Below, piece by piece: positions 1 to 21,708 of a stretch of DNA of 32,000 nt. The position numbers and the translations under genes were made by a program. Position 1 is the stretch's first letter. Each line of letters begins with the position of its first letter. The notes below the pieces were generated by a model that had not been told where the DNA came from, ran no database searches, and worked only from the letters and a program-made list of their open reading frames with translations. This DNA is from Pyrodictium abyssi (GTDB lineage Archaea > Thermoproteota > Thermoprotei_A > Sulfolobales > Pyrodictiaceae). The stretch is from the NCBI RefSeq assembly GCF_036323395.1, contig NZ_AP028907.1, positions 750,001 to 782,000 on the forward strand, given 5' to 3'.

Positions 1-1098
1 AGCGTCCACCACCTGTGCTATGAACTGCGCCACGTTGCCCTGCAGCAGGCCGCTAACACCGCCCACGCTGGCGTCAGCGAATATGCCGGTAGCTATCGCG
101 CCCCATAGACCCCCCATACCGTGGACCGCCCAGGCGTCAAGACTCTCGTCTAGCCCACGCGCTATGCGGAACAGCATAGCACCGTAGCACAGCAGGCCCG
201 CGACCGCTCCTATCACAACCGCTGCCCCAGCACCAACATAGCCTGCTGCTGGCGTTATCGCCACCAGGCCTGCTACAGCACCGCTAGCAAGGCCTAGCGA
301 GCCCGGCTTATCGCGCACCCAGCTGGCAACGAGCCAGGCGAGAGCGCCCGCTGAGGCCGCTATGTGCGTCACCAGTAGCGCGTTAGCAGCAGACGCGTCC
401 GCGGCGAGCGCGCTCCCCGCGTTGAACCCGAACCAGCCGAACCATAGCAGCGCAGTGCCTATGAGCGTTAGCGGGATGTTGTGCGGAGCCATGTTGTACT
501 CTCCGTAGCCTATCCTCTTGCCCACTACAAGCGCTAGCACGAGCGCGGCAAAGCCCGACGTTATGTGCACCACCGTGCCTCCCGCGAAGTCTAGGGGCGC
601 CGCGCCAAGCGCCTCATGTAGCCAGGTGTGGAGCCAGCCACCTCCCCATACCCAGTGGGCTACAGGGTCGTAGACCAGTGTTGTCCAGAGCAGGCCGAAG
701 ACCAGGAAAGCGCCCAGCTTCACCCTCTCGGCCAGCGCGCTCGTCAGTATAGCCAGGGTTATGGCGGCGAATGTCATCTGGAACGCGACAAACGCTAGGT
801 GTGGCAGGCCCTCGAGCCCCGGCGTTGGCTGGTCTACCGCTATACCGCGGAGCCCAGCGTACTCGAGGCCGCCCACAAACCCGCCTAACACGTTGCCTCC
901 AAAGCTGAGGCTATAGCCCACCAGCACCCACTGGAGGCTAACCAGCACCATAGAAACGAACGACAGAGATATCATGGACACTACGTTCTTCCTCCTCACC
1001 ATACCGCCGTAAAAGAACCCCAGGCCCATAGTCATCAGCACTACCATCGACGTAGCCGCCAGTATCCAGGCAGCGTCCCCCGAACTAAACCCAGGCAT
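1..1098 (-). CDS. amt: ammonium transporter, Amt family (C-terminal part runs off the window start)
   Basis: Own translation of the minus strand from ATG at 1098-1096 gives [38 protein letters not shown]... It contains the Amt hallmarks [17 protein letters not shown] and [13 protein letters not shown]. It is absent from the ORF track because there is no stop in the window. Confidence 0.9.
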
Positions 1099-1399
1099 AT
1101 CACACCCAACCGCGGCGCCCCAGGAGAGCCACGAACAGGGCTAAAACACTTGCCGGCAAGGAGACGGGTAGCCCACATGGGTTCTACAACAACACGAATG
1201 CAGGAAATACAACACCTCTACAGAATTACAGCCAACAGTCGCGAACACTCTAGAGGCTAGAGCCCCTGCGGAACCGTACAACAATCGAAGCCAGCTAGGT
1301 GTAGAAACAACCTAACCCAGAGAACAAGCAACAAGGGCCCCGCCGGGAGTGAGGGGAAGAATCGAGTTGAGGGTACGCAAGAGGATCATGAGAGGGGTG

Positions 1400-1433
1400 T
1401 GGCGCCGGGGGCGGGATTTGAACCCGCGCGGCC
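1400..1433. repeat. attL core (direct repeat, tRNA-Ser 3' end)
   Basis: TGGCGCCGGGGGCGGGATTTGAACCCGCGCGGCC is identical to 24044-24077. After a 5/7-nt divergent stretch, a further 20 nt (GGCCACCGGCTCTCCAGGCC) are also identical. Confidence 0.85.
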
Positions 1434-1490
1434 GGTGCGGCCACCGGCTCTCCAGGCCAGTGGCCCCCGGCGATGGTAGTATGCCCCGGC
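1400..1490 (-). pseudogene. tRNA-Ser-like remnant at attL (acceptor, anticodon GGA, variable and T arms recognisable; D arm absent)
   Basis: The reverse complement reads GCCGGGGCATACTACCATCGCCGGGGGCCACTGGCCTGGAGAGCCGGTGGCCGCACCGGCCGCGCGGGTTCAAATCCCGCCCCCGGCGCCA. No D-stem/loop (no GAGCGG-type loop) can be drawn. The variable arm differs from the intact copy by compensatory changes. Confidence 0.6.
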
Positions 1491-1523
1491 CCGGGCCTTG
1501 GGGCGGAGGCTTTCTAAGACAGA

Positions 1524-1540
1524 GTGTACACAGTGTACAC
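1524..1540. promoter_or_regulatory. tandem 8-bp palindromes GTGTACAC-A-GTGTACAC (candidate operator upstream of the AbrB-like gene)
   Basis: GTGTACAC occurs at 1524-1531 and 1533-1540. The pair lies just inside attL and directly 5' of the likely TTG start at 1554. Confidence 0.35.
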
Positions 1541-1721
1541 ACGGTGCCGGAGCTTGGGCCGCGGCCTACTCAAGGTCCAGAGGAAGCCCGCCGGCGAGCG
1601 CACCATACTCTACGTGCATCTACCCAAGGAGTGGGTAGACCGCCTAGGACTACGCGAGGGAGACTACGTGGAATGGGAGATCGACGGCCGGGGCCGGCTG
1701 GTCTTGAAGAAGCTGCGGTGA
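1524..1721 (+). CDS. AbrB/SpoVT-like swapped-hairpin DNA-binding protein (true start probably the in-frame TTG at 1554)
   Basis: The track ORF C-terminal part ILYVHLPKEWVDRLGLREGDYVEWEIDGRGRLVLKK fits the AbrB/MazE-type pattern: hydrophobic strand, P, LGL, GD, short strands. The first 10 codons overlap the palindromic operator-like repeat. Confidence 0.55.
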   Translation: MYTVYTRCRSLGRGLLKVQRKPAGERTILYVHLPKEWVDRLGLREGDYVEWEIDGRGRLVLKKLR

Positions 1722-1798
1722 GCTCACCCGCAGTGTATACCGAAAGTTTTCGGGTCTACGCGCGGGAAGGTGGACGTAGACTAGGTAGACCGGTCCAC

Positions 1799-2281
1799 CT
1801 AGTGGAGTAGCCGTGGCAGTATCTTGGCTATCTTCTCCCAGTCGCGTAGACTCATTACGGTTTCAACTCTGCTGCCTGGCCCCCAGATCGGCAGCTCCTC
1901 GGGGGTTATCTCGCGCAGCAGAGCGCCCGGCATGAGTAGGATCACGCGCGGATACACGGAGCCTATAGGCTCGTTTACGCGGTCTACCCCGGCTTCGAAA
2001 AGGGCCACGTAGATGGCTACGCGCCCGTCTACGAGCGCATAGCCGTAGGCCCCTTTCCGTCCGCACATAATACCCGCAGCCGGGGCCACATGCTCGGCTA
2101 TGCAGCACGCCAGGCGGTCTACATTGACCCTGTACTCGGAGGGCCTAAGCTCCAGCTCCTCTAGGACACCGTGCTCGACCAGGGACGGCAGCATCTTAGC
2201 CACTTTCCCCGGGATCGTAGGGACGCCCGGGACTCCGTCTAGGAGCCCTAGAAGCTCCCTCAGCTCCTCGACGCTGCACAC
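1799..2281 (-). CDS. hypothetical protein
   Basis: Track ORF of 160 aa with balanced composition. It lies downstream of, and on the same strand as, the integrase-like gene. Confidence 0.55.
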   Translation of the reverse strand: MCSVEELRELLGLLDGVPGVPTIPGKVAKMLPSLVEHGVLEELELRPSEYRVNVDRLACCIAEHVAPAAGIMCGRKGAYGYALVDGRVAIYVALFEAGVDRVNEPIGSVYPRVILLMPGALLREITPEELPIWGPGSRVETVMSLRDWEKIAKILPRLLH

Positions 2282-4784: not shown

Positions 4785-5155
4785 TAGAGTGCCACCTCGC
4801 CGACCTCGCTCTCCTCAGCCATCTTCTCCAGCTCGTCTATGGTCATCGGGATGCCCTTCTCGGCGGCGCAAGCCGCGGCCGCGTAGGCCAGCAGATGGCG
4901 GGCATACGGGCTCGGCTTCGGCGGGCGTATCTTAGCCTCCCAGTCTATCATGTCGAGTGCAGCTAGGCTCCCCACGACGCCCTCCGGGAGCAGCTCGGTC
5001 TCGAGTATGCGCTGCCCCTTCTCACAGCTAGTCGCCAGCATGAGCAGCGCAGCGTACTTCTCATCGACCCAGCCCCTGAAGTCCTCCAGCGTGACCTCCT
5101 TGCTCTTGCGGAATATCCGCAGCAGACTAGCACCACTAATGTACACCATGCTCAC
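4784..5155 (-). CDS. hypothetical protein (alternative ATG start at 5149)
   Basis: Track ORF of 123 aa. The junction with the upstream gene reads AGGAGGTGAGCATGG, i.e. stop TGA inside an SD-like GGAGGTGA. Confidence 0.55.
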   Translation of the reverse strand: MSMVYISGASLLRIFRKSKEVTLEDFRGWVDEKYAALLMLATSCEKGQRILETELLPEGVVGSLAALDMIDWEAKIRPPKPSPYARHLLAYAAAACAAEKGIPMTIDELEKMAEESEVGEVAL

Positions 5156-5547
5156 CTCCTAGCGCTCTCCACCTTGGCGATGGCTTCCTCAGCCAGCCTC
5201 TTCACGTCGACATACCTGGAGCCCACCTTCAGCCTCTGCGGGAGCTTCTTCCTAGCCTTCACGTAGGCCACCAGCCTCACAATCGCGTCCAGCACGGCCC
5301 CCGAGGCTCCATGCCTCTTGGCCAGGAATGGCACGAAGTCCACGCGCTGTACGAACAGCTCCTGCGTCATCCTTATCTTGCGGCATGTCCCCTGCTCGTA
5401 TGTCCATCCCCTACGTAGATCCCGGAGTATGAGCCTTAGGACGCCAGCAGCCTCGCGGAGAGTGTCTATGCCGGGGCGCCTAAGCCTGCGCACGTACACG
5501 CCCTCCCTTCTCGCGTAGCACGAGTCACGGCCCATGTAGACCGGCAC
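5152..5547 (-). CDS. hypothetical basic protein
   Basis: Track ORF of 131 aa with a GTG start 8 nt after the upstream stop. Same operon. Confidence 0.55.
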   Translation of the reverse strand: MPVYMGRDSCYARREGVYVRRLRRPGIDTLREAAGVLRLILRDLRRGWTYEQGTCRKIRMTQELFVQRVDFVPFLAKRHGASGAVLDAIVRLVAYVKARKKLPQRLKVGSRYVDVKRLAEEAIAKVESARR

Positions 5548-5554
5548 GGCCTCC

Positions 5555-6382
5555 TCACCTCCGGCCGCGGCCTGGGGCTACTAGGAGCAGCCCAAGGAGC
5601 GCGGCAGCCGCAGCACCCGCCAGCGCGTACTTGACGCGCTCATCGCTGAGGCTGATCTCCGCCTTCGGCGTCATCACCGTGATGGTATCCGAGGGCTTGG
5701 CGGGCGTCGGGTCGTCGGGCACCTCTACCCTGTTGTCCTCAAGCCATACAGAGAACTGTACACGGCGGGGGAGCTGGTCCTTCTCATCGCATGGGAGGTC
5801 CCACGTTATGGCTGCTGCTAGCTTCTTACCTTCGGGGAGCTTCTTTGCATCCACGACTAGGCAGCCTTGCCCGCTGCTTAGCGGTATGTAGCTGCCTAGC
5901 GGAAGGGCTGCGGCGAGGGGCACGACGCCGCCGTAGTATGCTACTGCGTCGTTGTAGACCGCTATGAAGAGGAACCGCTGTTCGGTCTGGGCGTGCTCGG
6001 ATGAGTCGTCGCTGGTTATCTTTGCGCATATCTTGAACGTCTTGAAGTATTTCTTTATCGTGCCGCTTTCTGGCGCAATTGGGACGTAGATGACTCGTAT
6101 CCCCTTAGATGAATAGATTGTTTTGCTTACTTGCAGCTCACCGTCTACACGGTATTCGTCTATGACATTGTACCTGCAGTCTGTCACCAGAATCTTGGAG
6201 CTCGTGTCCCACGTTATCTCGACCGTCCTCGCCGCTGCATGCAGGACTGCGGCTGGGAGGACTAGGAGGGCTAGGGCCGCGGCCAGGGCTAGTCTAGACT
6301 TGTGCACGGCTCGGCACCGGTCTAGGTGGGGGCGGCTTCTCGGTGTTAGCCCTGCTCCACGTGAGCACCCCATCGTTTCCAT
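5555..6382 (-). CDS. secreted, C-terminally anchored module protein (signal peptide, ectodomain, KYALAG anchor, GRGRR)
   Basis: Start trimmed to METMG (ATG 6382-6380; a GTG at 6307 is also possible), because the track start at 6565 would overlap the divergent gene. The N-terminal h-region is RLALAAALALLVLPAAVLHAAA. The C-terminus is TPKAEISLSDERVKYALAGAAAAALLGLLLVAPGRGRR. Confidence 0.65.
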   Translation of the reverse strand: METMGCSRGAGLTPRSRPHLDRCRAVHKSRLALAAALALLVLPAAVLHAAARTVEITWDTSSKILVTDCRYNVIDEYRVDGELQVSKTIYSSKGIRVIYVPIAPESGTIKKYFKTFKICAKITSDDSSEHAQTEQRFLFIAVYNDAVAYYGGVVPLAAALPLGSYIPLSSGQGCLVVDAKKLPEGKKLAAAITWDLPCDEKDQLPRRVQFSVWLEDNRVEVPDDPTPAKPSDTITVMTPKAEISLSDERVKYALAGAAAAALLGLLLVAPGRGRR

Positions 6383-6461
6383 GTTCTGCTCAAGGCCAGC
6401 AGGGCTAACACAACCCAGAGCGCAAGTATAGAAGCCGAAGAACCCCGGGACAGGTGATAGC

Positions 6462-8300
6462 ATGAATAGGCATAGACTCCTCCCGGCCCTAGGCCTACTA
6501 GCCCTACTCCTCATAGCAGGCATAGCGAGCGCGGAGCAGGAGATGCTGCGCGCCGACCTCGACAAGACGCTCTTCTTCTGGACGCAGAAGGACTACGTGA
6601 GGTTCTGTCGGGATAGAAGCGGTAACCCCAGCTACACAGACAAGGCAATATTGTTCGTGGACGATGAGCTGCCTGCTAGCAGGATAGCTAGCATTCAGCT
6701 GGACCTGCAGAACTACGTGCAGCGTTACGTGAAGGTGGACTTCGACCAGTACGCGGGGAACGAGTATCTCGTCATCCAGTCATCGTCGTACGACCTGGAT
6801 TGGGCTGACAAGTACAGCGGCATACCGCTGCTGGTCCACATAGTGACTGAGGACGGGGAGACGATCCGTGTGCCAGCGTTCATGGGGATGCCAGAGTTCA
6901 ACACTGCTGGCCACTGGTGGTACGGTTGGCGCGTTGGCGAGATTCAGCTAGTCGTCCACCTCCCCGTCGACCCGAGCAGGATAGCAGCGCTCGTAGTGTA
7001 TCCAGACGACAGGGAGGGCGTGGTAAACTCGAACGACTGTGTGGGCTACTGGCAGCTCATGGTGGGCTTCGCCCCCGAGGACGCCATAGTAAATCCGAAC
7101 GTCAACGTGACCGTGAAGCCAGACATCAAGGTGCAGGGCGATAGCAAGCCTGTGGTCATAACCCAGACCGTGAGAGAGGAGCACATGGCCGGCCGGGAGA
7201 ACCCCGGCGACGGCGACGCGAAGCTGAAGTACGCGCTGGCGGGCGCGGTCGGCGGCGCGATGCTCGTGGGGATAATACTGGTGGCTGTGAACGGCCGCGG
7301 CCGGAAGCACGCCATAGTCTTCCTAGCCCTAGGCGCGGCACTGGCACTGGCCGCCCATGCCCACGCCGCCACGATCGACGCCAGCAACGCCCAGGACCTC
7401 CAGCACCTCATAGTCTACTCCAACGCCACGATAACTATCAGCGCTAACGAGACCGGGATCGTAGTCAGCAATCAGGACAACGCTACCGCGCTGGTGGTCC
7501 TCAACCCGCTGTTCGGCTACGTGCTGCGGGGCCTGCACGGCGCGTACCCCGTGCTGGTGAACACCACGGACTACAGCGTGGTGCTCGTGATAGCGAACGA
7601 GACGAGCCTCGACGCCGTGGGGATGCGTAGGGGCGACGGGGCTGCGCTGGGCCTGCTGGTGCCGGCGAACAGCAGCGCTGTGGTCGAGAGCATAGACTAC
7701 GATGCGGATAGCAGCGGCGTGCCCGTCGGCGTCGAGGGGCTTAGCAGCATCAGCCCGCCGCCGGACTACAAGCTGGCCGGGGACAGGTCGGGTTCAGACA
7801 CAGAGCACTGGACGTGGACGATGCCGGTAAGCGGCACGCTATGGCTCGCGTTCAACCCCGGCGAGGGCAGGAAGAGCGACGGCAGCACCGACTACCCGTT
7901 CTTCGGCGAGATACGCTTCGTGGACCCCAACGGCCGCGGCCTGGGCTACATGTTCTGCCACGTCCACGAGTGCCAGCCGGGCAAGTACCAGATACTAACG
8001 TACGTCGCCGGCCCCGGCGAGGTAAAGTTCGACGTGTTCCGCGACAGCAGCGTAACAACCGTGACAATGGGCTGGAGGCTAGTCTGGGCCTACAAGGCCG
8101 ACTCGGGCGACAGCAATAGCCCGCCCGTAGATGGAGGCGGCGACGTGCAGCCGGCGCCGAATCCTAACCCGACGCAGACGGCGCAGCCGGACACCCCCAA
8201 GGCTGAGATCAACATGGACAGCGAGACGACCAAGTACGCGGTAGCCGGCGCCGCGGCCATAGTCTTCCTAGCCATAGTGGTGCTGGCTACGAGGAGGTGA
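6462..8300 (+). CDS. two-module surface protein or polyprotein (SP, ectodomain A, anchor-GRGRK, SP-like, sequon-rich ectodomain B, anchor-RR)
   Basis: 612-aa track ORF. The N-terminal signal peptide is LLPALGLLALLLIAGIASA. The internal junction is KLKYALAGAVGGAMLVGIILVAVNGRGRK-HAIVFLALGAALALAAHAHA-ATID. The C-terminus is TPKAEINMDSETTKYAVAGAAAIVFLAIVVLATRR. The second half has many N-X-S/T sequons. Confidence 0.75.
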   Translation: MNRHRLLPALGLLALLLIAGIASAEQEMLRADLDKTLFFWTQKDYVRFCRDRSGNPSYTDKAILFVDDELPASRIASIQLDLQNYVQRYVKVDFDQYAGNEYLVIQSSSYDLDWADKYSGIPLLVHIVTEDGETIRVPAFMGMPEFNTAGHWWYGWRVGEIQLVVHLPVDPSRIAALVVYPDDREGVVNSNDCVGYWQLMVGFAPEDAIVNPNVNVTVKPDIKVQGDSKPVVITQTVREEHMAGRENPGDGDAKLKYALAGAVGGAMLVGIILVAVNGRGRKHAIVFLALGAALALAAHAHAATIDASNAQDLQHLIVYSNATITISANETGIVVSNQDNATALVVLNPLFGYVLRGLHGAYPVLVNTTDYSVVLVIANETSLDAVGMRRGDGAALGLLVPANSSAVVESIDYDADSSGVPVGVEGLSSISPPPDYKLAGDRSGSDTEHWTWTMPVSGTLWLAFNPGEGRKSDGSTDYPFFGEIRFVDPNGRGLGYMFCHVHECQPGKYQILTYVAGPGEVKFDVFRDSSVTTVTMGWRLVWAYKADSGDSNSPPVDGGGDVQPAPNPNPTQTAQPDTPKAEINMDSETTKYAVAGAAAIVFLAIVVLATRR

Positions 8301-8307
8301 TAGTGCT

Positions 8308-8499
8308 ATGGGCGTGAGGGCTAGGCTGGGCGGGCTCGCCTCGGCGGCCGGGCCGCTGGCTCTGGTGCTCTTCATAGCGGGCCTAGGCGCGGTAGTGGCT
8401 GTCGCCATGAAGCCGGATCTGGCGAAGTACGCGGCATACGGAGTCGGCGTCATAGGAGCATTCGCCGGCTTCGTGCTCGCCGCAACCCGCCGGCGCTAG
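8308..8499 (+). CDS. small membrane protein, ectodomain-less minimal module
   Basis: 63 aa. An SP-like helix (PLALVLFIAGLGAVVAVA) is followed directly by AKYAAYGVGVIGAFAGFVLAATRRR. AGGAGGTGA lies 8 nt upstream of the ATG. Confidence 0.5.
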   Translation: MGVRARLGGLASAAGPLALVLFIAGLGAVVAVAMKPDLAKYAAYGVGVIGAFAGFVLAATRRR

Positions 8500-8547
8500 C
8501 CCGCACCCACTCTTTTTCCCGTCGACAGCCACTCCTGGGGTGAGACT

Positions 8548-10323
8548 ATGCGCTTCCCGGTGCTAGCCGTCGCTGTGTTCCTGGCACTATCGCTGGCCAC
8601 GGCAGCCCAGGCAGCCGAGATAGAGCCCTTGAAGGTGCTGTACGACAACAAGCTGGACAGGAGCGTAGTTGTCGTGGTCTACGCTAACCGGCAGTACGGC
8701 ACCGGCTGGTGGGTCAACGAGCACTACATCGTAACCGCCGCCCACGTAACAGACTACCAGGCCAATGTCCCGGTAACCATCCTCCACGGCGACTACGAGA
8801 GCAGCGGCTACGTGGTGGGGGTGGACAAGGAGCACGACATCGAGGTCATATACGTGGAGCGGCCAATGGCCAATGCAACAATCTTGCCATTGTGTGAACG
8901 TGTGGCCAAGGGCGAAGAAGTGCTGGTCATAGGGTACCCGTTCGAGCTGCTGCAGATACTAGGCGATCTGAGGGCTGCGAGCGCAAACCCGCGCGCGGCG
9001 TACGGCACGATAGCGTGGACCGGCACAGGCGAGAAGTGGTACCTCAGCGAGGTCCAGGCGACGACGGACGAGGGGAACTCTGGCGGGCCGGCAGTAGATC
9101 TCGACACGCACTGCAGCCTAGGGGCCATCACCTTCGCATTGAAGGGCGAGGCCGGCGTCCTATACTATATAACTAATGTATACAGCGTCCGCCGGCTCCT
9201 CGACAAGTACAACGTAACGTACACGGTCAAGCAGAACATGAAGCTGACGGACAGCGACGACTGGCCGTGGAACCAGCACGCCGACTCCAGCAGCCCTAGC
9301 ATCGACAGCGAGAAGCAGCTCTACGCGCTCGGCGGAGCAGCGCTGGCCGCCTCGATAATGGCGGTGCTGCTCGTAGCCTCCGGCCGCGGCCGGAGGGCGG
9401 CAGTTGTCGTCCTGGCCCTAGGCGTGGTTGCGCTAGCGCTGCCGGCCGCGCACGCTGATAGCGGCAATGTGAGCATAGCGGTGATTCCGCTCGCTGTGCG
9501 CGACTCCGGCTACGACCTCGTCCAGTGCCAGCACGTCAAGGTGTCTGTGAAGGCGAAGTACTATGATGGGCCGTTGTTCGGCTTGTTCCAGCCCGCCGAG
9601 GTCCACATAGGCCCCCTCACAGCGAGGATCGACACAGGGAACGCGTACCTGGGGCTCGCCGACCGGGTCTACGCGGTCGTCGAGCTGGACGGCGAGAAGG
9701 TGGCAGAGAAAGAGCTGACAAAGATATGGATAGGTGGGGGCAGCTACGACTTCGGCCTGGTCGTGGACTGCAGCTGGAGCGACGAGCTAAGCTGCAGCGT
9801 CTCGACGGATAAGGGTCTGGTCTGGAGCGGCACCATAAAGCCCAGCCCCTACGGCTACTACGACATATTCTGGGACTACGCAGACGAGCCCACCATAGAC
9901 AGCGAATGGATATGCGACACTGCTACCACCACAGTCACAGGTATAGAGCCAGCACCCGACCGGCCCACCAACCAAGACAACTACAAGAACCAGAACAACG
10001 AGGACGGTCTAGAGAAGTACATGCTCTACGGTGTTGGCGGGCTAGCAGCACTGAGCCTCCTCCTGGCCGCGGCCCGGGGCGGCAGCGTTGTCGTGGTAAG
10101 CGGTGGTGGCAAGAGAGGCATGGTGCAGCTCCTAGGCGTCATAGTGTTGGCCGCGGCCCTGGGAGGAGCCGCACTGGCGTGGAAGCTGCGAGGGCTCTTC
10201 GACGGCGGGGGCTCGGGCGACTCTAGCCTGTTGTTGGCTGGGATCGGGATCCTCGTGGCCATTGTTTTCCTCATGCTCCTGCTCGGTAGGAGATCACAGG
10301 TCATAGTAGTTGAGGGGAGGTGA
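8548..10323 (+). CDS. membrane-anchored trypsin-like (chymotrypsin-fold) serine protease fused to further anchored modules
   Basis: 591-aa track ORF with signal peptide VLAVAVFLALSLATAAQA. The catalytic-triad motifs are in canonical order: YIVTAAHV (His), HDIEVIYV (Asp), GNSGGP (Ser). The internal junction is EKQLYALGGAALAASIMAVLLVASGRGRR-AAVVVLALGVVALALPAAHA-DSGN. A third anchor is LEKYMLYGVGGLAALSLLLAAARGG. Confidence 0.8.
   Translation: MRFPVLAVAVFLALSLATAAQAAEIEPLKVLYDNKLDRSVVVVVYANRQYGTGWWVNEHYIVTAAHVTDYQANVPVTILHGDYESSGYVVGVDKEHDIEVIYVERPMANATILPLCERVAKGEEVLVIGYPFELLQILGDLRAASANPRAAYGTIAWTGTGEKWYLSEVQATTDEGNSGGPAVDLDTHCSLGAITFALKGEAGVLYYITNVYSVRRLLDKYNVTYTVKQNMKLTDSDDWPWNQHADSSSPSIDSEKQLYALGGAALAASIMAVLLVASGRGRRAAVVVLALGVVALALPAAHADSGNVSIAVIPLAVRDSGYDLVQCQHVKVSVKAKYYDGPLFGLFQPAEVHIGPLTARIDTGNAYLGLADRVYAVVELDGEKVAEKELTKIWIGGGSYDFGLVVDCSWSDELSCSVSTDKGLVWSGTIKPSPYGYYDIFWDYADEPTIDSEWICDTATTTVTGIEPAPDRPTNQDNYKNQNNEDGLEKYMLYGVGGLAALSLLLAAARGGSVVVVSGGGKRGMVQLLGVIVLAAALGGAALAWKLRGLFDGGGSGDSSLLLAGIGILVAIVFLMLLLGRRSQVIVVEGR
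9377..9396. repeat. 20-bp perfect palindrome CCTCCGGCCGCGGCCGGAGG at the module junction of the protease ORF
   Basis: Read directly from the sequence. It encodes SGRGRR. Confidence 0.9.
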
Positions 10324-10327
10324 GAGC

Positions 10328-10942
10328 ATGGAGCCCATGAGCCTGCTCGCGTACACGGGGAGCTTCGCGGCCCTGGCCGGGGGCATAGCGATAGTGTACT
10401 CCGTGCTCCGGGACCGGGGCTCCAGGCGGGAGCAGATGCTGCGCGAGCACCTGGCAGCCCTAGCCGGCAAGCTGGAGAAGTGCGAGCTGGAGAAGGAGAA
10501 GCAGGCGAGCGTCATAGCGGACCTGGAGCTTGAGAGGAAGAAGCTAGAGGCGCGGCTAGAGGAGGAGAGGAGGAGGCTACAGGCGGAGAAGGAGAAGGCT
10601 CTAGCTGAGCTGGAGCGAAGGCTGCGCCTAGAGTTCGCCAAGGAGCGCTCGAGGCTCCTCGAGGACTGCGAGAAGAGAGTAGAGCAGGTTGCGAGAGTGT
10701 CGAGATCAGCCGCTACACTCTTCGAGGCGGTGAAGAGCGGGAAGATAAGACTAGTCGCGGCAGAGAAGACGTGTGAGGGCATAATCATAGAGCCGGAGAG
10801 GATACTATGCAAGAGGAGCGACGGAACCCTGGAGGCAATATGGCCCGAAGAGTACAGCGTGGGAGAAGCGCTGGTGGTCGAGCCCTCCAGCCAGGCCTCG
10901 GGCCGCGGCCAGGCTAGGAAGTCCAAGGAGCAGGAGCAGTAA
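10328..10942 (+). CDS. N-terminally anchored coiled-coil protein
   Basis: Start set at the ATG following the GGTGAGAGCATG junction (the track TTG at 10310 is less likely). The TM helix is LLAYTGSFAALAGGIAIVYSVL. E/K/R/L heptad-like sequence follows (LEKCELEKEKQASVIADLELERKKLEARLEEERRRLQAEKEK). Confidence 0.6.
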   Translation: MEPMSLLAYTGSFAALAGGIAIVYSVLRDRGSRREQMLREHLAALAGKLEKCELEKEKQASVIADLELERKKLEARLEEERRRLQAEKEKALAELERRLRLEFAKERSRLLEDCEKRVEQVARVSRSAATLFEAVKSGKIRLVAAEKTCEGIIIEPERILCKRSDGTLEAIWPEEYSVGEALVVEPSSQASGRGQARKSKEQEQ

Positions 10943-10953
10943 GGGGAGGAGCG

Positions 10954-12153
10954 GTGGGCAGCGTCTACGACCTTTTCTTCATAGTCGAGGGCTTCTTTGT
11001 CGGCTTTATGGCGTTCTACTTCCTGGCGCGCCGGAACCCGGCGTATCTGCAGACGCTGCGGGATCATCTACGGTTCTTCCTTAGCCCCTATGGGCCGGAG
11101 ACGATGGTCGTTATCAAGCAGCTGGACAACACTGTGCGGATAGTCTACGACCCCAGGGTCTACAAGAGCAGGAACGGCGTGATAATAGAGGCTGATGACG
11201 CGCTGTTCTCCGCGAGGATGGATCCCCGGGACGGGATGCTGGTGGGGCTGGCCGACGCCCGGGGCCCTGTGGGGGTGCCGAGCCCGTATGGCTATGTGTG
11301 GAGGCTGCTGGTGGGCTGGACGCTGATCTGGGTCTTCGGCTGGATAGCGCTGGTAAACACGTTCATAGACTCGCTGCTGAAGGGCCAGACCCCGGGGCCG
11401 GTGGACTGGCTGGCGCTGCTGGCCTTCATCCTGCTGGTGTACACGCTGCTCGGCCAGGTGGTCCCGAAGCTCTACACGCCGACGATACGGCTGGCCGGCT
11501 ACGTAGAGAACGGCTACGACCCACCGTACCGTAAGCTCGCATCCAGCTGCAGCCCCTGGGACCCGACAAGCGTAGACGAGTGCGCGGAGGAGTACGGCGG
11601 CCAGATGATAGTAAAGGTTCCAGAGAGCGCGGTCGAGTACCTCGACGAGCTCAAGAAGGAGCACGGCACGTACACGCTGGCCGCGGCGATACTAGCGAGG
11701 CTCGACGAGGGCGTAAGACTGCGCAAGACCGTCTCGGAGCTAAAGAGGAGAATGTACGAGCAGACCGAGGCCGCGAAGAGCCTAGTAAGGATAGAGGGAT
11801 GGAGGTACTTCACCAGGCTCACGCTGCCCAAGGTGCTGTTCTGGCTGCTGCTGGTGGGGATCGGCTTCGGTCTAGGATACCTGTTCGGCAGCGACTGGGC
11901 GCTGAGCAGCCAGCCGCCGGCGTGGTACATGGCGGCTAACTCTACCGCCCAGGCCGCGGCCCAGCAGCAGGTCTACGTGCCCGTGAGCCCGGCGCAGCCC
12001 CCGACGCCGCCCACTGCCGGCCAGCCGCCTGTGCAGCCGGCCCAGCCACCCCCGCCGCCGTCCACGGTGACGGTCACGATCACTCCCGCTAAGCCCCCGA
12101 GCCCGCCGGCCACCGGCAACACGACGGTACAGCCAGCCGCGGCCCAGGGGTGA
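10954..12153 (+). CDS. polytopic membrane protein with Pro-rich C-terminal tail
   Basis: 399-aa track ORF with a GTG start after GGGGAGGAG. It has several hydrophobic helices. The tail is PAQPPTPPTAGQPPVQPAQPPPPPSTVTVTITPAKPPSPP. Confidence 0.6.
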   Translation: MGSVYDLFFIVEGFFVGFMAFYFLARRNPAYLQTLRDHLRFFLSPYGPETMVVIKQLDNTVRIVYDPRVYKSRNGVIIEADDALFSARMDPRDGMLVGLADARGPVGVPSPYGYVWRLLVGWTLIWVFGWIALVNTFIDSLLKGQTPGPVDWLALLAFILLVYTLLGQVVPKLYTPTIRLAGYVENGYDPPYRKLASSCSPWDPTSVDECAEEYGGQMIVKVPESAVEYLDELKKEHGTYTLAAAILARLDEGVRLRKTVSELKRRMYEQTEAAKSLVRIEGWRYFTRLTLPKVLFWLLLVGIGFGLGYLFGSDWALSSQPPAWYMAANSTAQAAAQQQVYVPVSPAQPPTPPTAGQPPVQPAQPPPPPSTVTVTITPAKPPSPPATGNTTVQPAAAQG

Positions 12154-12995: not shown

Positions 12996-13439
12996 GTGGC
13001 GTGCAGGGTGCTTATAGATACTAGCCTGGCATGGGTGATGGCCAGGGGTCCCTCGTACCTGGCTGAAGCTCTTAGGGCGTTCTTTAGGAAGCTAGGGTCC
13101 AACGGGTGTAGCATACTCTACAGTGAGGCTGTCTATATAGACCTGCGCCACGAGAGGAGGGAGAAGAGAGAACAGATACTGTCGCAGCTCCGCTCCCTCG
13201 CCCAGCAGGCCCCAGTGGACATGAAGCTGTTGCTGATGCGGGTAGGCCGCTACGGGGCCACTGTGCGGAAGCTAGGCCTAGCCGACGTCCTAATAGCCCT
13301 CGCAGCGAGGGAGGTGGGCGCGGTGCTCGCAACCGGGGACTGGGGACAGGCCAGGTTCTACATCAACATAGCAGGTGCCGACCGGCCGCCAGTAATATAC
13401 ATCCCCGTGAAGCTGATAACAGAGGCGGAGAAGAGGTGA
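12996..13439 (+). CDS. PIN-domain protein (VapC-like nuclease)
   Basis: Acidic PIN positions are in order: VLIDTS, YSEAVYIDL, LADVLIALAAREVGAVLATGD. GTG start 3 nt after the upstream TGA. Confidence 0.55.
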   Translation: MACRVLIDTSLAWVMARGPSYLAEALRAFFRKLGSNGCSILYSEAVYIDLRHERREKREQILSQLRSLAQQAPVDMKLLLMRVGRYGATVRKLGLADVLIALAAREVGAVLATGDWGQARFYINIAGADRPPVIYIPVKLITEAEKR

Positions 13440-15253: not shown

Positions 15254-15584
15254 TGCTCTCGGCCTCTAGGGCTTCTCTGTTCATCTTCCGGATCCGGTCG
15301 AGCATCTTGACGGCGTGCTCTATGTACTCCAATAGCCTGTACTTGGGGGTCTTCCGGTCGACGAGGAGTAGCTGGATGACGTTGCCCAGCAGGTCGTCTG
15401 TGGCGCTTATGGTCCCGTAGAGCACCGCCAGCGTGTCCCGGTGGCCCCGTGGCAGCTCCTTGCAGTCTACTAGCCCCGCCGCCTCGAGCCTCGGCAGCAG
15501 CGCCTCGTCCCACAGCGGCGCAGCCACGACGACATGCCGCACGTACTCCCTATCCCAGCACCGCCAGAACCTCACCCCCTGCAT
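15246..15584 (-). CDS. hypothetical protein
   Basis: 112-aa track ORF in the same operon. Confidence 0.5.
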   Translation of the reverse strand: MQGVRFWRCWDREYVRHVVVAAPLWDEALLPRLEAAGLVDCKELPRGHRDTLAVLYGTISATDDLLGNVIQLLLVDRKTPKYRLLEYIEHAVKMLDRIRKMNREALEAESNG

Positions 15585-16069
15585 TTCTCGAGCACCTCCT
15601 CGAGGTTCGCTACCTCGTAGCAGCCTAGGCGGTGCCCGCTAGGGGTCTCCGGACACACGATGAGGCTGGCTCCGCGGCCCTCGAGCACCAGCCTGGTGAA
15701 CGCTGTCTCCGTGAACGGGTCCTCGGCCTCGGCGCGGCCACGCCTCAGCGCCTCGACCACGGCGCTGCACGGCGCGTAGACGGTGTCGTACATGCCCGGG
15801 AACTGGGGTAGCGGCTGGTACCGGAGCAGCACGAACCTATTGGTTGCCAGGTAGAGCCACACCCCGATCAGCTCGTAGACCCGCTCCCGCCTCTCCTCGG
15901 CCTCCCGCCTCCTGTAGCGCCGCCGCCTCCGCAGCCCGGCGATGATCTGCGTCACAATCCTCTTAGCCTCCTCCTCGGAGAGATAGAGGCGGACAACGAC
16001 GCCATTGACTTCCCAGAACCACAGCCTTACATCATCACCAGCAATACTAGCGTCAACAATCCTAGCCAA
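15572..16069 (-). CDS. hypothetical protein (C-terminal part of the 323-aa track ORF; start uncertain, TTG 16069 proposed)
   Basis: Only the part downstream of the stop at 16084 of the preceding gene has protein-like composition (ARIVDASIAGDDVRLWFWEVNGVVVRLYLSEEEAKRIV...). The upstream half is an R/A/P/G-rich alternative frame of the 16084-16557 gene. Confidence 0.45.
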   Translation of the reverse strand: MARIVDASIAGDDVRLWFWEVNGVVVRLYLSEEEAKRIVTQIIAGLRRRRRYRRREAEERRERVYELIGVWLYLATNRFVLLRYQPLPQFPGMYDTVYAPCSAVVEALRRGRAEAEDPFTETAFTRLVLEGRGASLIVCPETPSGHRLGCYEVANLEEVLEKCRG

Positions 16070-16083
16070 CCAACACCACCCCT

Positions 16084-16557
16084 CTAGGCCTCGATCTCTA
16101 GCTCTATCGCCTGGCCGCTGCTGGTTGGCTGGTGTACGGGGAGGAGGCCTCGGCGCTCGAGGAACTCTATGACTGCTTTGCGTATCACATCGCTGCGGTG
16201 CGGCCAGCCCAGGAGGACTCTGGCGTCGTCGATGCGCTGCAGCAGCCCCTCGCCGAGCTTCACCGTCACCACGCGGAGCGGGCCGCGGCCCGGAGCCGGG
16301 ACGGGCTCCCTCACGCCCACCGGGGGGCGGCGGAACACCGGCAGCGGCTCCTCGTCGACGAGGAGCCGGTAGACCCGGGTCCCGTCCCGCTCCAGCACGG
16401 CGAGCCCCCGCTCCGCCATCTCGGCCAGGAGCTGGCCGGCCCTCCAAGCCGGCAGCCCCATCAGCCGCGCCAACAGCCGCGCGTTGACGTACCGCAGCCC
16501 GAGACGCGCAAGCAGCCGCGCCAGCTCCTCCAGGCCCAGGCACACCCGGCTAGCCAT
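16084..16557 (-). CDS. transcription regulator, winged-helix N-domain plus ribbon-helix-helix C-domain
   Basis: The wHTH-like part is LARLMGLPAWRAGQLLAEMAERGLAVLERDGTRVYRL. The RHH (CopG/Arc-like) part is RVVTVKLGEGLLQRIDDARVLLGWPHRSDVIRKAVIEFLERRG. Confidence 0.6.
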   Translation of the reverse strand: MASRVCLGLEELARLLARLGLRYVNARLLARLMGLPAWRAGQLLAEMAERGLAVLERDGTRVYRLLVDEEPLPVFRRPPVGVREPVPAPGRGPLRVVTVKLGEGLLQRIDDARVLLGWPHRSDVIRKAVIEFLERRGLLPVHQPTSSGQAIELEIEA

Positions 16558-16837
16558 GCACCGCCACCTCCGGCCGCGGCCTGGAGAGTAGTATCGGCCG
16601 CTGTGCCTCCAGCTCCCGCTTGAGCAGCTCGATCCTCGCCGCGACCAGCTCCCGGTCAGCGACGGTGTCCACGTCGTCGAGCTGCGGCCTGCCTAGGCGG
16701 TGGCCGCAGCGGGGGCATAGGCCGCCGAACCACGACGCTATCTCTGAGGGCGTCGGCAGCCCGTAGCTGCTCTGCCCCATCCTCCAGTGCACGTACAGCA
16801 CATAGCCGCACTCCCTGCAGCGGTAGACGACTACCAT
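16550..16837 (-). CDS. zinc-ribbon protein
   Basis: Start trimmed to MVVVYRCRECGYVLYV...LCPRCGHRL (CxxC...CxxC). ATG at 16837 overlaps the upstream stop (ATGGTAG). The longer track N-terminus is an R/G/A-rich alternative frame. Confidence 0.5.
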   Translation of the reverse strand: MVVVYRCRECGYVLYVHWRMGQSSYGLPTPSEIASWFGGLCPRCGHRLGRPQLDDVDTVADRELVAARIELLKRELEAQRPILLSRPRPEVAVHG

Positions 16838-17058
16838 GCGCAGACCCCCTCCTCGGTCTCCCTTAGCACACCCTCGACGATCAGCTCGAAGACGAGCTTG
16901 CGGAGCCGCTTCTCGCCGACAGGCATCCCCATCCTCCGCAGCTCCCTGTGCAGCTCCCTCCGGGTCATGCAGCGGCGCTGCAGGATGCCGGTTATGGCCT
17001 TGATCAGCTCCTGGTCGCTGGGCGTGGGCACCAGCACCAGCAGAGGCTCGGCCTCCAC
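16831..17058 (-). CDS. small winged-helix DNA-binding protein
   Basis: 75 aa: ELIKAITGILQRRCMTRRELHRELRRMGMPVGEKRLRKLVFELIVEGVLRE. Confidence 0.5.
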   Translation of the reverse strand: MEAEPLLVLVPTPSDQELIKAITGILQRRCMTRRELHRELRRMGMPVGEKRLRKLVFELIVEGVLRETEEGVCAW

Positions 17059-17069
17059 TACGTCCCACC

Positions 17070-17339
17070 TCAGCTAGGTCCCACCCAGTCGCTCGGCAGG
17101 CGGACGACGCGCACGCCGTTCCCGTTGCCTATGCTGCGCCACTGCCGGAGAAGCCCGGCAGCCATGACCGACTCGCAGCGCCTCGTGCCGAACAGCTCCT
17201 CCTGCACCAGCCTCTTGACAGCCTCCCTCACAGCGTCGCTCCTATGCTTGAACACCCCGCGCCTCACAAGCTCGTCGAGAGCCTCAGCAAGCATCCCCGG
17301 GATCTTGACGACCACCAGCGTACCGCTCACCACGGTCAC
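17070..17339 (-). CDS. ribbon-helix-helix (CopG-like) protein (start uncertain; GTG candidates at 17339, 17333 or 17330)
   Basis: TLVVVKIPGMLAEALDELVRRGVFKHRSDAVREAVKRLVQEEL shows the strand-helix-helix pattern. The N-terminal half of the 176-aa track ORF overlaps the 17336-17590 gene and looks spurious. Confidence 0.55.
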   Translation of the reverse strand: MTVVSGTLVVVKIPGMLAEALDELVRRGVFKHRSDAVREAVKRLVQEELFGTRRCESVMAAGLLRQWRSIGNGNGVRVVRLPSDWVGPS

Positions 17340-17590
17340 CCCCTGCCTAGGTACTCGAGGATGCTCTTCGTGGACGGTGTGATGGCCCTGGGCTTGTACC
17401 GGTAGCACTTGCCCGTGTAGTAGGTCACCGGCCTCCCGTAGGCCGTGCACCATCCTAGGACGCTGTGGCCGACGCGCTCGCCACGCTCTTGGCGCCACTG
17501 GAGCCACTTCTCCGCCTTGATGATCTGCTCCTCGGAGAGCTGGCTCGCCGGGACGAAGTATTCGCACTTCCTGCAGTCCGCCAGCACCAT
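17336..17590 (-). CDS. small Cys-rich (zinc-finger-like) protein
   Basis: 84 aa with CRKCEYF...GWCTAYG...GKCYRYK. Confidence 0.5.
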   Translation of the reverse strand: MVLADCRKCEYFVPASQLSEEQIIKAEKWLQWRQERGERVGHSVLGWCTAYGRPVTYYTGKCYRYKPRAITPSTKSILEYLGRG

Positions 17591-17601
17591 GGCGGCTCAC
17601 C

Positions 17602-17889
17602 CTAGTCGTAGTAGATGACGCCCTCCTCCCGCGCCATGATGCTGTAGACTAGGCGCTCGCTGGCGCCCTCCGGCATGTGCAGGATCTTCTTGCTCCTGCC
17701 CCGGCGGCCGGCGACTACGCGGACCACGGCGTACTTGGCCTTGTTTACGCAGATCTCCCTCGGCTGCTCCTCGCCCTGTATGGTATCCTTCACGATGCCC
17801 GCCGACACGTCCACGATGTAGTATACCGTGCCGCCGCAGCCGCGCCTACCCACACACTCGTTCTCAAAGCAGAAGTACCTATCACCCAT
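17602..17889 (-). CDS. hypothetical protein
   Basis: 95-aa track ORF with balanced composition, in the same operon. Confidence 0.45.
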   Translation of the reverse strand: MGDRYFCFENECVGRRGCGGTVYYIVDVSAGIVKDTIQGEEQPREICVNKAKYAVVRVVAGRRGRSKKILHMPEGASERLVYSIMAREEGVIYYD

Positions 17890-17905
17890 GGCTGCGCCGC
17901 CCCCT

Positions 17906-18178
17906 CTAGCCTAGGACTAGCTGCCGGGCCGGCTCCTCGTGGCGCATGTGCGGCTCCAGGGCCTCGACGCGGCAGTCCTTGGCGCCGCGGGACTGCAGGA
18001 AGTTCTCGAACGCCGCCGCCACCTCCCGGCAGCTCCGCTCCACCCGGGGCAGCCAGCCCCAGACCACGTCCTCGAGGGCGAAGGCCTCGGCGAGGCTCCG
18101 GACCACGGCAGAGCGCAGGCAGCAGCCGCTGACCCGGAGCCGGCAGCCGGCGACCTCGACCACGATCATGGCTGCCAC
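17906..18178 (-). CDS. hypothetical protein
   Basis: 90-aa track ORF. The competing overlapping ORFs are R/P/G-rich. Confidence 0.4.
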   Translation of the reverse strand: MAAMIVVEVAGCRLRVSGCCLRSAVVRSLAEAFALEDVVWGWLPRVERSCREVAAAFENFLQSRGAKDCRVEALEPHMRHEEPARQLVLG

Positions 18179-18348: not shown

Positions 18349-18350
18349 CC

Positions 18351-18899: not shown

Positions 18900-18901
18900 G
18901 C

Positions 18902-19150: not shown

Positions 19151-19181
19151 CGCCTATCACCCCGCCACAGCCACAGGAACA

Positions 19182-21688: not shown

Positions 21689-21708
21689 CCCCAGGCCGCG
21701 GCCTGGGG
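21689..21708. repeat. 20-bp perfect palindrome CCCCAGGCCGCGGCCTGGGG (identical to 3212-3231), intergenic
   Basis: Read directly from the sequence. Confidence 0.9.

Follow-up and report, generated by a model that had tools for sequence, protein, structure and literature searches.

Signal peptide-anchor modules, stand-alone and apparently fused, in an AGV1-like provirus of Pyrodictium abyssi

In the hyperthermophilic archaeon Pyrodictium abyssi, two long ORFs, B (6462-8300) and D (8548-10323), can be read with good support from sequence comparison as genes that became joined in frame and kept their signal peptides, the counterparts in related viruses being independent genes. The ORFs lie in a 32,000-nt stretch of the genome, called the window here. 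The region studied probably encodes the envelope proteins of a 22.6-kb provirus that sits at a tRNA-Ser gene and is related to Aeropyrum globular virus 1 (AGV1). The building block of the region is probably a type-I membrane protein: behind a Sec signal peptide come a beta-rich ectodomain, often glycosylated, a stalk of Pro and Thr, the TM anchor, and finally a short tail of basic residues. I assign a joint probability of about 0.62 to this explanation as a whole.

The provirus and its kinship with AGV1

The provirus is bounded by a 40-nt att direct repeat (1394-1433 = 24038-24077, 98% identity), which extends to 1458/24104 at 82% identity.

1394-1458, no strand: attL, the left provirus border; incomplete copy of the 3′ part of tRNA-Ser
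24038-24133, minus strand: attR, overlapping tRNA-Ser(GGA) at 24044-24133; right provirus border

A host Amt transporter gene (1-1098, Pfam E = 4.6e-108) lies to the left of attL, and housekeeping genes (methyltransferase, Cbf5, cmk, adk, and SecY) lie to the right of attR. Integration at a tRNA gene is also known from the temperate virus AGV1 (NC_036595). The two elements share core genes: the provirus ATPase and protease are 49% and 36% identical to their AGV1 counterparts (the latter being gp04), and homologues of gp31 and gp11 are also present. The gene order is the same as well, with a divergently transcribed, minus-strand P-loop ATPase block followed by a plus-strand module, a two-TM protein, the protease, a coiled-coil protein, and a multi-TM protein. 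The AGV1 genes gp01-gp09 encode the same type of unit (signal peptide, ectodomain, TM anchor, and basic tail), a membrane-anchored trypsin-like protease, and small two-TM proteins alongside. In AGV1, however, each unit is its own gene (gp01, gp03, gp04, gp08, and gp27), as are the two-TM proteins gp02 and gp09. Furthermore, its ectodomains except the protease have no BLAST similarity to the Pyrodictium ectodomains, and its host genus and integrase are different.

ORF B sits at the position equivalent to that of gp01, the AGV1 major virion protein. No window module gave a tblastn match to gp01 (E ≤ 0.01), while a gp01 homologue was found in the relative L034 (family F12). Since B has no BLAST similarity to gp01, it is by its position and architecture that B may be a virion component. 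The Edman-determined N-terminus of the AGV1 major virion protein is an internal sequence of ORF1_309. Thus, this stand-alone module is N-terminally processed in vivo, an indirect indication that such modules are cleaved.

Stand-alone and fused modules in the window

All of the anchors and both internal junctions listed in the initial annotation of this DNA were found as described. The TM anchors of the units begin with (K/D)(Y/W)xxxGxG, and small two-TM hairpin proteins accompany the units. In line with the predicted topology, the ectodomains have 10 N-glycosylation sequons in 1134 residues, compared with one in 1714 residues of cytoplasmic proteins, and the number of cysteines is even in each ectodomain. 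Two genes of the region are not fused.

5555-6382, minus strand: gene A (PABY_08110), a stand-alone module; NCBI start GTG 6307, 250 aa
about 6307-6230, minus strand: signal peptide of A (...LPAAVLHAAA/RTVEI, the slash marking the predicted site)
6229-5633, minus strand: ectodomain of A
5632-5558, minus strand: stalk, KYALAG anchor, and GRGRR of A
8308-8499, plus strand: gene C (PABY_08130), encoding a two-TM hairpin protein of 63 aa; corresponds to AGV1 gp02/gp09 and to the C-terminal tail fused to D

The GTG of gene A is preceded by a Shine-Dalgarno-like GGTG motif, and its orthologue in L003 (7432-8214, family F4) is also a stand-alone gene. A and B2 have in common a 57-residue stalk and anchor (42% identity). 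It had been pointed out that GRGR starts with Gly 278 in B and with Gly 279 in D, and that A is about 275 residues long; the two positions are right, but the match is not robust because gene A is annotated as 250 aa from GTG 6307.

ORF B encodes 612 aa, with two ectodomains; between them lie a TM anchor, a basic loop, and a segment that resembles a signal peptide and ends in AHA.

6462-6533, plus strand: N-terminal signal peptide of B (MNRHR...IAGIASA/EQ), with a GGTGA Shine-Dalgarno motif upstream
6534-7226, plus strand: B1 ectodomain, family F2; 68% identical to P0007
7227-7307, plus strand: B1 stop-transfer anchor KYALAG...VNG and cytoplasmic basic loop GRGRK; palindrome at 7293-7302
7308-7367, plus strand: B2 internal signal peptide (HAIVFLALGAALALAAHAHA); predicted signal-peptidase site A302/A303, nt 7367/7368
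7368-8231, plus strand: B2 ectodomain and Pro/Thr-rich stalk, family F1; fast-evolving, with six N-glycosylation sequons
8232-8300, plus strand: B2 anchor KYAVAG...LATRR and stop codon; a 21/22-nt repeat is shared with the B2 signal peptide

An AlphaFold model of B2 predicts two beta-rich domains (pLDDT 66), which match only the generic beta-sandwich. ORF D encodes 591 aa, namely a protease, D2, and a two-TM tail, and its ectodomains are likewise linked by a TM anchor, a basic loop, and an AHA-ending, signal-peptide-like segment.

8548-8613, plus strand: N-terminal signal peptide of D (MRFPV...ATAAQA/AEIEP)
8614-9312, plus strand: D1 ectodomain, a trypsin-like serine protease, family F0 (Pfam Trypsin_2, E = 2.4e-15)
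9313-9396, plus strand: D1 anchor KQLYALGG...VASG and basic loop GRGRR; palindrome at 9382-9391
9397-9456, plus strand: D2 internal signal peptide (AAVVVLALGVVALALPAAHA); predicted cleavage A303/D304
9457-10011, plus strand: D2 ectodomain, fast-evolving (21-31% identity to orthologues, versus 55-74% for the protease)
10012-10323, plus strand: D2 anchor EKYMLYG...AAARGG (10012-10083) and fused two-TM tail (TM 10117-10179 and TM 10222-10287)

With the Trypsin_2 match, the D1 ectodomain is no longer anonymous. Its catalytic His, Asp, and Ser are invariant (H44, D75, and S156 in alignment A1). The two-TM tail is equivalent to a separate C-like gene.

Fusion and fission among relatives

It had been suggested to inspect homologous loci for modules that occur as separate genes, in other orders, or in other numbers, and all three kinds of variation were found. 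In metagenomic relatives, six ectodomain families were seen both as stand-alone genes, with an N-terminal signal peptide and a C-terminal anchor, and as internal modules. The protease family F0 stands alone in AGV1, L023, L025, L026, and L034, is the first module in D, P0002, P0003, and P0004, and is the third module in P0005. The B2 family F1 stands alone in L222, L223, and L224 and is fused in the window, L003, and L005, and the B1 family F2 is represented by a stand-alone gene of 277 aa, P0007, with its own signal peptide and anchor. Families F8, F9, and F10 likewise exist in both states. The F10 module, which in L222 and L223 has a gene of its own and an N-terminal signal peptide, is D2-like by a BLAST match with D2 in the L003 orthologue of D; the D2 of the window itself clustered with nothing. 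The order is B2-B1 in L222, L223, and L224 and B1-B2 in the Pyrodictium provirus. Modules fused to a two-TM tail are frequent in the family (the tail of D, L034, L022, L028, and L030). Fusion with retained signal peptides is well supported because the six families occur both ways, module order and number vary, and the signal peptides of B2 align with an invariant Ala at position -1.

Neighboring units in this family are packed 1-8 nt apart and have probably been fused in frame repeatedly, B arising from B1 and B2, and D from the protease, D2, and the two-TM tail. After such a fusion, the cytoplasmic basic tail of one unit would double as the n-region of the next signal peptide, and thus the membrane topology would be unchanged.

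Internal signal peptides and their probable cleavage

Because none of the fused parts has lost its export signal or its membrane anchor, the signal peptidase of the host probably separates the products. The Sec translocon would insert each fused protein by alternating stop-transfer and re-initiation, and the signal peptidase I of the host would cut behind the retained A-x-A, at A302/A303 in B and A303/D304 in D. The downstream ectodomain would be freed as a separate anchored protein, while in the upstream product the used signal peptide would stay on as another TM helix.

The AHA-ending internal segments had been described as signal-peptide-like, and this description was borne out by homology. 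In alignment A2, the internal segments preceding B2 align in register with signal peptides that precede this mature domain N-terminally in stand-alone homologues, and the Ala at -1 is invariant in all eight sequences. The alignment contains three internal and five stand-alone segments (four N-terminal and one behind an extra 27-aa segment), the stand-alone genes including P0009, P0010, P0011, and L222 orf1. Similarly, the signal peptide ahead of the protease domain is N-terminal in D and internal in P0005. The three regions of a signal peptide are recognizable: GRGRK-H and GRGRR directly precede the hydrophobic core in the window, the core has about 15 residues, and (P)AAHA or HAHA follows. 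In the orthologues, the n-region contains RR, KRR, GRK, RQR, or YRH, and a single K only in the 619-aa ORF of L003. The distance from the last basic residue to the site is 20 residues internally and 19-20 residues in the N-terminal signal peptides of the same ORFs. As judged by eye, 10 of the 11 internal segments preceding an ectodomain end with [A/V]-x-A before a polar start, a triplet that is common in Ala-rich helices. The site at the D junction is present in the orthologues P0002 (AHA), P0003 (ASA), and P0004 (AVA). An internal translation start is not indicated, because the GGTGA motif borne by the true starts is absent at both junctions.

Alternatively, the fusions may be real but uncleaved, yielding polytopic proteins in which a TM hairpin joins two ectodomains and the A-x-A is an ancestral leftover or a composition effect. 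I consider this the less likely outcome, although it has a substantial share of the probability. The fusions of a module with a two-TM tail, which need no cleavage, are common in the family, and the 784-aa fusion ORF in L022 has no clear cleavage site. A-x-A arises easily in Ala-rich helices, and A-x-A-like triplets also end several first helices of two-TM units (AVA/M in C and ALA/W in D), while the stretch of about 15 hydrophobic residues plus the c-region, a span of about 20 residues, is long enough for a plain TM helix. On the other hand, the Ala at -1 is among only six invariant columns of the B2 proteins, fused and unfused, which are 30-57% identical. Members of the D lineage retain the site even where overall identity has dropped to about 43%, and a helix-breaking Pro or His lies 4-9 residues ahead of the site in most junctions. 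These features argue for the cleavage of the fused products.

Shared DNA at the module ends

The two junctions are 79% identical over 47 nt (7292-7338 versus 9381-9427), in line with the similarity noticed initially. As also noticed, GGCCGCGGCC is present at 7293 and 9382 and GCCCTAGGC at 7326 and 9415, with a spacing of 33 nt both times, and AAGTACGCGCTGGCGGG is a 17/17 match between the anchor of A and the B1 anchor (7227-7243). The sharing of GCCATAGTCTTCCTAGCC was located 2-3 nt off; it is real and belongs to the 21/22-nt repeat (7311-7332 versus 8256-8277). GCCCTAGGC is not clearly enriched (five copies versus 1.66 expected, a number reached in 4 of 100 shuffles) and encodes A-L-G of signal peptides, including the N-terminal one of B at 6486. 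Apart from such short identities of anchors and signal peptides, the only repeat around the cassettes is the provirus-wide palindrome described below. In L223, a perfect 55-nt identity joins the stalk/anchor parts of two module genes that are otherwise unalignable, which shows that DNA is exchanged between module ends.

Are the borders active, palindrome-tagged recombination handles, with a dedicated mechanism that shuffles, fuses, or deletes ectodomain cassettes and so varies the surface or the host range? The differences in module order and number, the 55-nt identity, the direct repeat that brackets B2, the 17 nt identical between A and B1, and the much faster evolution of second ectodomains than of first ones all speak for it. 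However, the palindrome occurs throughout the provirus, in three frames and at nine intergenic sites, with only 3 of the 34 copies at borders, and it is absent from relatives with fusions or a swapped order. Outside the palindrome codons, the nucleotide identity of the junctions is, by my reading, about that predicted by the shared residues. No invertase, shufflon-type repeat set, or reverse transcriptase was recognized among the provirus ORFs scanned, where the provirus integrase was the only recombinase, and the observed differences are between distant elements, not variants of one element. A dedicated mechanism is thus improbable. What stands of the proposal is that modules have been shuffled, fused, and split at their borders over evolutionary time; the palindrome as their handle does not.

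A provirus-wide palindrome

The most surprising result was the distribution of the 10-base palindrome GGCCGCGGCC, which had been taken for a tag of the module borders. The window has 34 copies versus 0.28 expected.

1557-23999, no strand: 33 copies of GGCCGCGGCC in the provirus; GRGR-encoding at anchors and junctions at 5563, 7293, and 9382

A single copy lies in the 9.3 kb of host flank, compared with 33 in the 22.6-kb provirus. By position, 15 copies are in the AAA frame, nine in the GRG frame, and one in the PRP frame, and nine are outside the called genes. Gene A contains copies at 5563 (GRG) and 6275 (AAA), and the D2 end region contains copies at 10065 and 10149 (AAA). The provirus genes have 24 copies versus 1.95 expected from synonymous-codon shuffling, while one-mismatch variants number only 10. 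The palindrome encodes 8 of the 9 GRG and 17 of the 27 AAA tripeptides, and at none of 12 sites is the tripeptide kept in orthologues, except for L005 at the B junction. GRGRR is found at the joints because this provirus-wide palindrome encodes it; GRGR(R/K) is what GGCCGCGGCC codes for when read in frame 0 within a Gly- and Arg-tolerant loop, and is not a module design. A role as a border tag is not compatible with this distribution.

In exceeding expectation by far in several frames and in non-coding DNA, GGCCGCGGCC resembles HIP1 (GCGATCGC) of cyanobacteria, also a short GC-rich palindrome with about one copy per kb in several coding frames and intergenic DNA. HIP1 is genome-wide. GGCCGCGGCC differs in being 10 nt long and in lying in an archaeal provirus, where it is at least 10 times denser than in the 9.3 kb of host flank sampled. 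AGV1 has no copy of it. GGCCGCGGCC could be a DNA tag for packaging, for discrimination between viral and host DNA, or for recombination; no methyltransferase linked to it was recognized in the provirus.

Comparison with known systems

The initial annotation also likened the KYALAG motif, the TM helix, and the Arg cluster to a sortase-type C-terminal signal (PGF-CTERM/archaeosortase), to be removed and replaced by a lipid anchor, and the tripartite layout beside a Pro/Thr-rich stalk is indeed similar, but this is very improbable given that the NCBIfam sorting-signal models gave no match to A, B, C, or D (E ≤ 0.05), that the motif is K-Y-A-L-A-G instead of PGF and varies in the family (W or Y, GxG) in the manner of a helix-packing or interface motif, that half of the anchors are internal with another module after them (B1 and D1, two TM helices also lying beyond the D2 anchor), and that archaeosortases have been described mainly in Euryarchaeota.

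The envelope precursors of flaviviruses (prM-E), bunyaviruses (Gn-Gc), and alphaviruses (p62-6K-E1) are cut by host signal peptidase. As in the Pyrodictium ORFs, stop-transfer anchors and internal signal peptides alternate in one ORF, and the products are single-pass envelope proteins, as those of the provirus would be after the predicted cleavage. Archaea use Sec61/Sec11-type machinery of the sort found in the ER. There is no sequence or fold relationship, however; the Pyrodictium element is an archaeal dsDNA provirus, and its fusions are recent and variable, relatives keeping separate genes. It is tempting, but still rather doubtful, to picture an enveloped archaeal virus with Sec-inserted envelope polyproteins cut by signal peptidase and with a virus-specific 10-bp palindrome (about 1.5 copies per kb) selected strongly enough to rewrite proteins into AAA and GRG. 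If true, this would be a prokaryotic counterpart of the glycoprotein precursors of animal viruses, caught arising by gene fusion.

A prokaryotic membrane polyprotein of this kind is the FbcH cytochrome b-c1 precursor of Bradyrhizobium, in which signal peptidase cleaves at an internal signal peptide and two membrane proteins result. In contrast to the provirus ORFs, FbcH is a bacterial, cellular respiratory protein and is neither modular nor variable.

Provirus and envelope genes

The window begins with a host ammonium-transporter gene and ends with housekeeping genes (methyltransferase, Cbf5, cmk, adk and SecY). It was found that a 40-nt direct repeat (1394-1433 and 24038-24077, 98% identity) overlaps the 3' end of tRNA-Ser(GGA). 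Thus, the DNA of about 22.6 kb between the repeats is an integrated element. Its genes carry the tags PABY_08110-08370. A blastn search of positions 5000-12000 against phage records gave no match; the relationship with Aeropyrum globular virus 1 (AGV1) was recognised through published work and tblastn. The provirus is akin to AGV1, with which it shares gene order, a P-loop ATPase (49% identity), a protease (36%) and two more genes. The AGV1 preprint reports Pyrodictium sp. homologues of three AGV1 genes, encoding a trypsin-like peptidase, a nuclease and an ATP-binding protein. The envelope block of the provirus consists of the following ORFs.

5555-6382, minus strand: A, a single module (PABY_08110, 250 aa in the NCBI annotation)
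6462-8300: B, ectodomain modules B1 and B2 (PABY_08120, 612 aa)
8308-8499: C, a small unit with two transmembrane (TM) helices (PABY_08130)
8548-10323: D, ectodomain modules D1 and D2 (PABY_08140)

In AGV1, the units made of a signal peptide, an ectodomain, a TM anchor and a basic tail are separate genes (gp01, gp03, the protease gp04, gp08 and gp27), and the small two-TM proteins gp02 and gp09 come after some of them. The single major virion protein of AGV1 is gp01, whose N-terminus determined by Edman degradation is an internal sequence of ORF1_309; thus, gp01 is processed in vivo. Tris-acetate has served to induce AGV1.

All anchors listed in the initial annotation and both internal junctions, where an anchor in B or D runs into a second signal-peptide-like segment, were present as described. 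The description of D1 simply as a variable ectodomain needs correction: it belongs to the trypsin-like serine proteases, and its catalytic triad is invariant. In a protein search, ORF D was 100% identical to a P. abyssi protein annotated as a serine protease. N-glycosylation sequons number 10 in the 1134 ectodomain residues of the window and 1 in the 1714 predicted cytoplasmic residues of the element, and the cysteine count is even in every window ectodomain. AlphaFold modelled full-length B poorly (pLDDT 51); for B2 alone, confidence was moderate (pLDDT 66) and the model was beta-rich. These features are compatible with extracellular ectodomains. In Foldseek searches with the models, all matches were generic (beta-sandwich, carbohydrate-binding-module or tail-fibre-like, TM-score 0.3 or less), and no fold was assigned.

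Fusion and fission of modules in relatives

Relatives were collected by protein searches and metagenome scans, and their ectodomains were clustered by BLAST into families. In these homologous loci, the modules described in the initial annotation occur as separate genes, in other orders and in other numbers. Six ectodomain families were found both as a stand-alone gene and as an internal module.

Table. Ectodomain families found in both states (L, loci of relatives; P, related proteins)
Family; stand-alone gene; fused module
F0 (protease); AGV1, L023, L025, L026, L034; module 1 in D, P0002, P0003 and P0004, module 3 in P0005
F1 (B2); L222, L223, L224; module 2 in the window, L003 and L005
F2 (B1); P0007 (277 aa); module 1 in the window and L003
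F8, F9; L033; within the 519-aa and 702-aa ORFs of L001
F10 (D2-like); L222; module 2 of the L003 orthologue of D

The order is B2-B1 in L222, L223 and L224, in contrast to B1-B2 in the window. The two-TM unit is likewise a separate gene in some cases (C, AGV1 gp02, L023, L030) and fused onto the module before it in others (D, L034, L022, L028). Since separate module genes are spaced by only 1-8 nt, a slight change of boundary suffices for fusion. A sequencing or frameshift artefact was rejected because the fused layout is also present in independent assemblies (P0002-P0006, L001 and L003) and NCBI annotates B and D at full length.

The D2 of the window joined no family in the BLAST clustering. 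Its identity to the orthologous second ectodomains of P0002-P0004 is 21-31%, compared with 55-74% for the protease; the corresponding values are 30-55% for B2 and 68-71% for B1. By these comparisons, the second ectodomains diverge much faster than the first, which fits a role in host interaction. The fast-evolving B2 and D2 are candidate host-recognition proteins of an almost unstudied virus group.

Internal segments resembling signal peptides

Are the internal segments of B and D signal peptides? In an alignment of the B2 family, the signal peptides of five proteins encoded by stand-alone genes are in register with three internal segments (in window B, P0006 and the 619-aa ORF of L003). The Ala at position -1 is invariant and is immediately followed by the mature start A-T/S-I-x-A-S-N; position -3 is occupied by A, V or G. 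One aligned protein, P0008, has an extra N-terminal stretch before the signal peptide, probably due to an over-extended start. The protease domain begins at a similar distance past the AQA of the N-terminal signal peptide in D and past the internal AHA in P0005. Among D orthologues, AHA, ASA or AVA is kept at the internal site down to about 43% overall identity. The n-region of the internal segments is basic, their core spans about 15 residues, and a Pro often stands 4-9 residues ahead of the site. Taken together, these observations show a signal-peptide ancestry of the segments, with the cleavage motif retained.

The initial annotation had proposed that B and D are membrane polyproteins cut by signal peptidase after AHA. 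This reading explains the data best, its cleavage step being a prediction; I put the probability that the internal sites are cut at roughly 60%. By analogy with the precursors of flaviviruses and alphaviruses, the spent signal peptide would then remain on the upstream product and form its second TM helix. Caution is needed because an A-x-A end need not mean cleavage: A-x-A is common in Ala-rich helices and also ends some first helices of two-TM units, and a 784-aa fusion ORF in L022 has no clear site. Internal translation starts were rejected: a GGTGA-type motif lies ahead of genuine gene starts, and at the two junctions no start codon comes with one. The sole candidate is a weak GGTG 3 nt ahead of GTG 7287. 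A Tat signal was considered for the RR before the hydrophobic core and was dismissed since the RR sits inside the protein and orthologues do not keep it. The element's own protease was rejected as the enzyme that cuts the GRGRR loops: it is extracellular, whereas they are cytoplasmic, and, by reading the sequence, it has Thr at the position of trypsin Asp189.

Signal-peptidase-processed envelope polyproteins are textbook knowledge in eukaryotic RNA viruses. A full-text literature search found no paper on a signal-peptidase-processed polyprotein in an archaeal virus. Here, one set of related viruses holds the intermediates, with the same modules as separate genes and in two-module and three-module fusions. 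The series shows how such precursors can arise, as fusion of a cytoplasmic tail to an n-region keeps the topology. The fusions are also substrates for studies of crenarchaeal signal peptidase specificity.

A provirus-wide palindrome

The measurements reported for the two junctions hold: over 47 nt their identity is 79%, GRGR begins with Gly278 in B and Gly279 in D, and the 10-nt palindrome GGCCGCGGCC encoding GRGR lies 33 nt from the short motif GCCCTAGGC in both. Gene A had been said to agree in length with the 278/279 positions; its probable start is GTG 6307, giving 250 aa, and thus the agreement is not robust. GCCCTAGGC is not significantly enriched and encodes A-L-G of signal peptides, including the N-terminal one of B.

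The window contains 34 copies of GGCCGCGGCC, compared with 0.28 expected. Only 10 one-mismatch variants were found, and thus the motif is sharply defined. All but one of the copies (33, spanning 1557-23999) lie between the att sites; the 9.3 kb of host flank has a single copy (at 30887), where 13.6 would be expected at equal density (Poisson P (≤1) ~2e-5). In called genes, the palindrome is read as AAA (15 copies), GRG (9) or PRP (1), and nine copies lie outside called genes. Synonymous-codon shuffling gave 1.95 expected copies in provirus genes, compared with 24 observed. Of the 27 AAA tripeptides in provirus proteins, 17 are encoded by the palindrome, where codon usage predicts 1.5; for GRG tripeptides, the count is 8 of 9. 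At the 12 sites having orthologues, the tripeptide is not conserved, except in L005 at the B junction, which also has the palindrome. No copies were found in AGV1 and the related loci other than L005. GGCCGCGGCC was gained via amino-acid changes. From the counts, the reading frames and the lack of conservation, GRGR(R/K) is a coding shadow of a provirus-wide DNA motif and not a border tag.

This bears on a second proposal, that palindrome-tagged module borders act as recombination handles for shuffling ectodomains. It survives in a weak sense, as modularity over evolutionary time; the palindrome fails as a border tag because it is provirus-wide and because relatives lacking it still show fusions and order changes. 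The case is a caution that a "conserved protein motif" such as GRGRR can be a by-product of selection at the DNA level. The palindrome, spread through the provirus, is a lead of its own and the more surprising result.

The 16-mer CCAGGCCGCGGCCTGG, searched against genome contigs, hit only unrelated high-GC bacteria among the matches listed. A scan of viral contigs for two palindromes 60-90 nt apart gave unrelated contigs, none with proteins in common with the provirus. Three such unrelated IMG/VR contigs (L279, L336, L286) have scattered GGCCGCGGCC at 0.6-1.4 per kb, in a sample chosen for two nearby copies and therefore not fair. Four copies (21570, 21656, 21694 and 22046) lie in the non-coding stretch 21503-22234, which may serve the provirus in regulation or as an origin.

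Recombination at module ends and anchors

The 17-nt and 21/22-nt identities noted between module ends are both real. The latter is an in-frame direct repeat around B2 (7311-7332 and 8256-8277, 945 nt apart), encoding AIVFLA in the signal peptide and in the anchor of B2; the anchor of the L005 orthologue lacks it. A and B2 have a common stalk/anchor with 42% amino-acid identity. In L223, the module genes 78-899 (-) and 1045-2013 (+) are divergently transcribed and share 55 nt of 100% identity between their stalk/anchor coding regions, and they are unalignable elsewhere; this sequence pattern suggests that the module ends underwent gene conversion recently. Thus, an element occasionally homogenises its module ends. 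The analysis found no sign of dedicated switching.

The anchor motif (K/D)(Y/W)xxxGxG is present throughout the family. The likeness of the anchors to a sortase-type C-terminal sorting signal was rejected, as no NCBIfam sorting-signal model matched. The motif looks like a membrane-interface and helix-packing motif.

Other genes of the provirus

An ESCRT-III-like (CdvB1/B2) gene (18351-18899, minus strand, PABY_08370) matches NCBIfam NF041005 with E = 6.3e-32, under the curated cut-off. A virus-borne membrane-scission protein of this kind would fit budding of an enveloped globular virus. A PIN-domain ORF lies at 12996-13439 on the plus strand (Pfam E = 3.7e-4). In 15500-19600, G+C rises to 0.66-0.69, and a series of short minus-strand ORFs in shifting frames has third-position G+C of 0.85-0.93; these ORFs may be numerous small genes or decayed, frameshifted ones.
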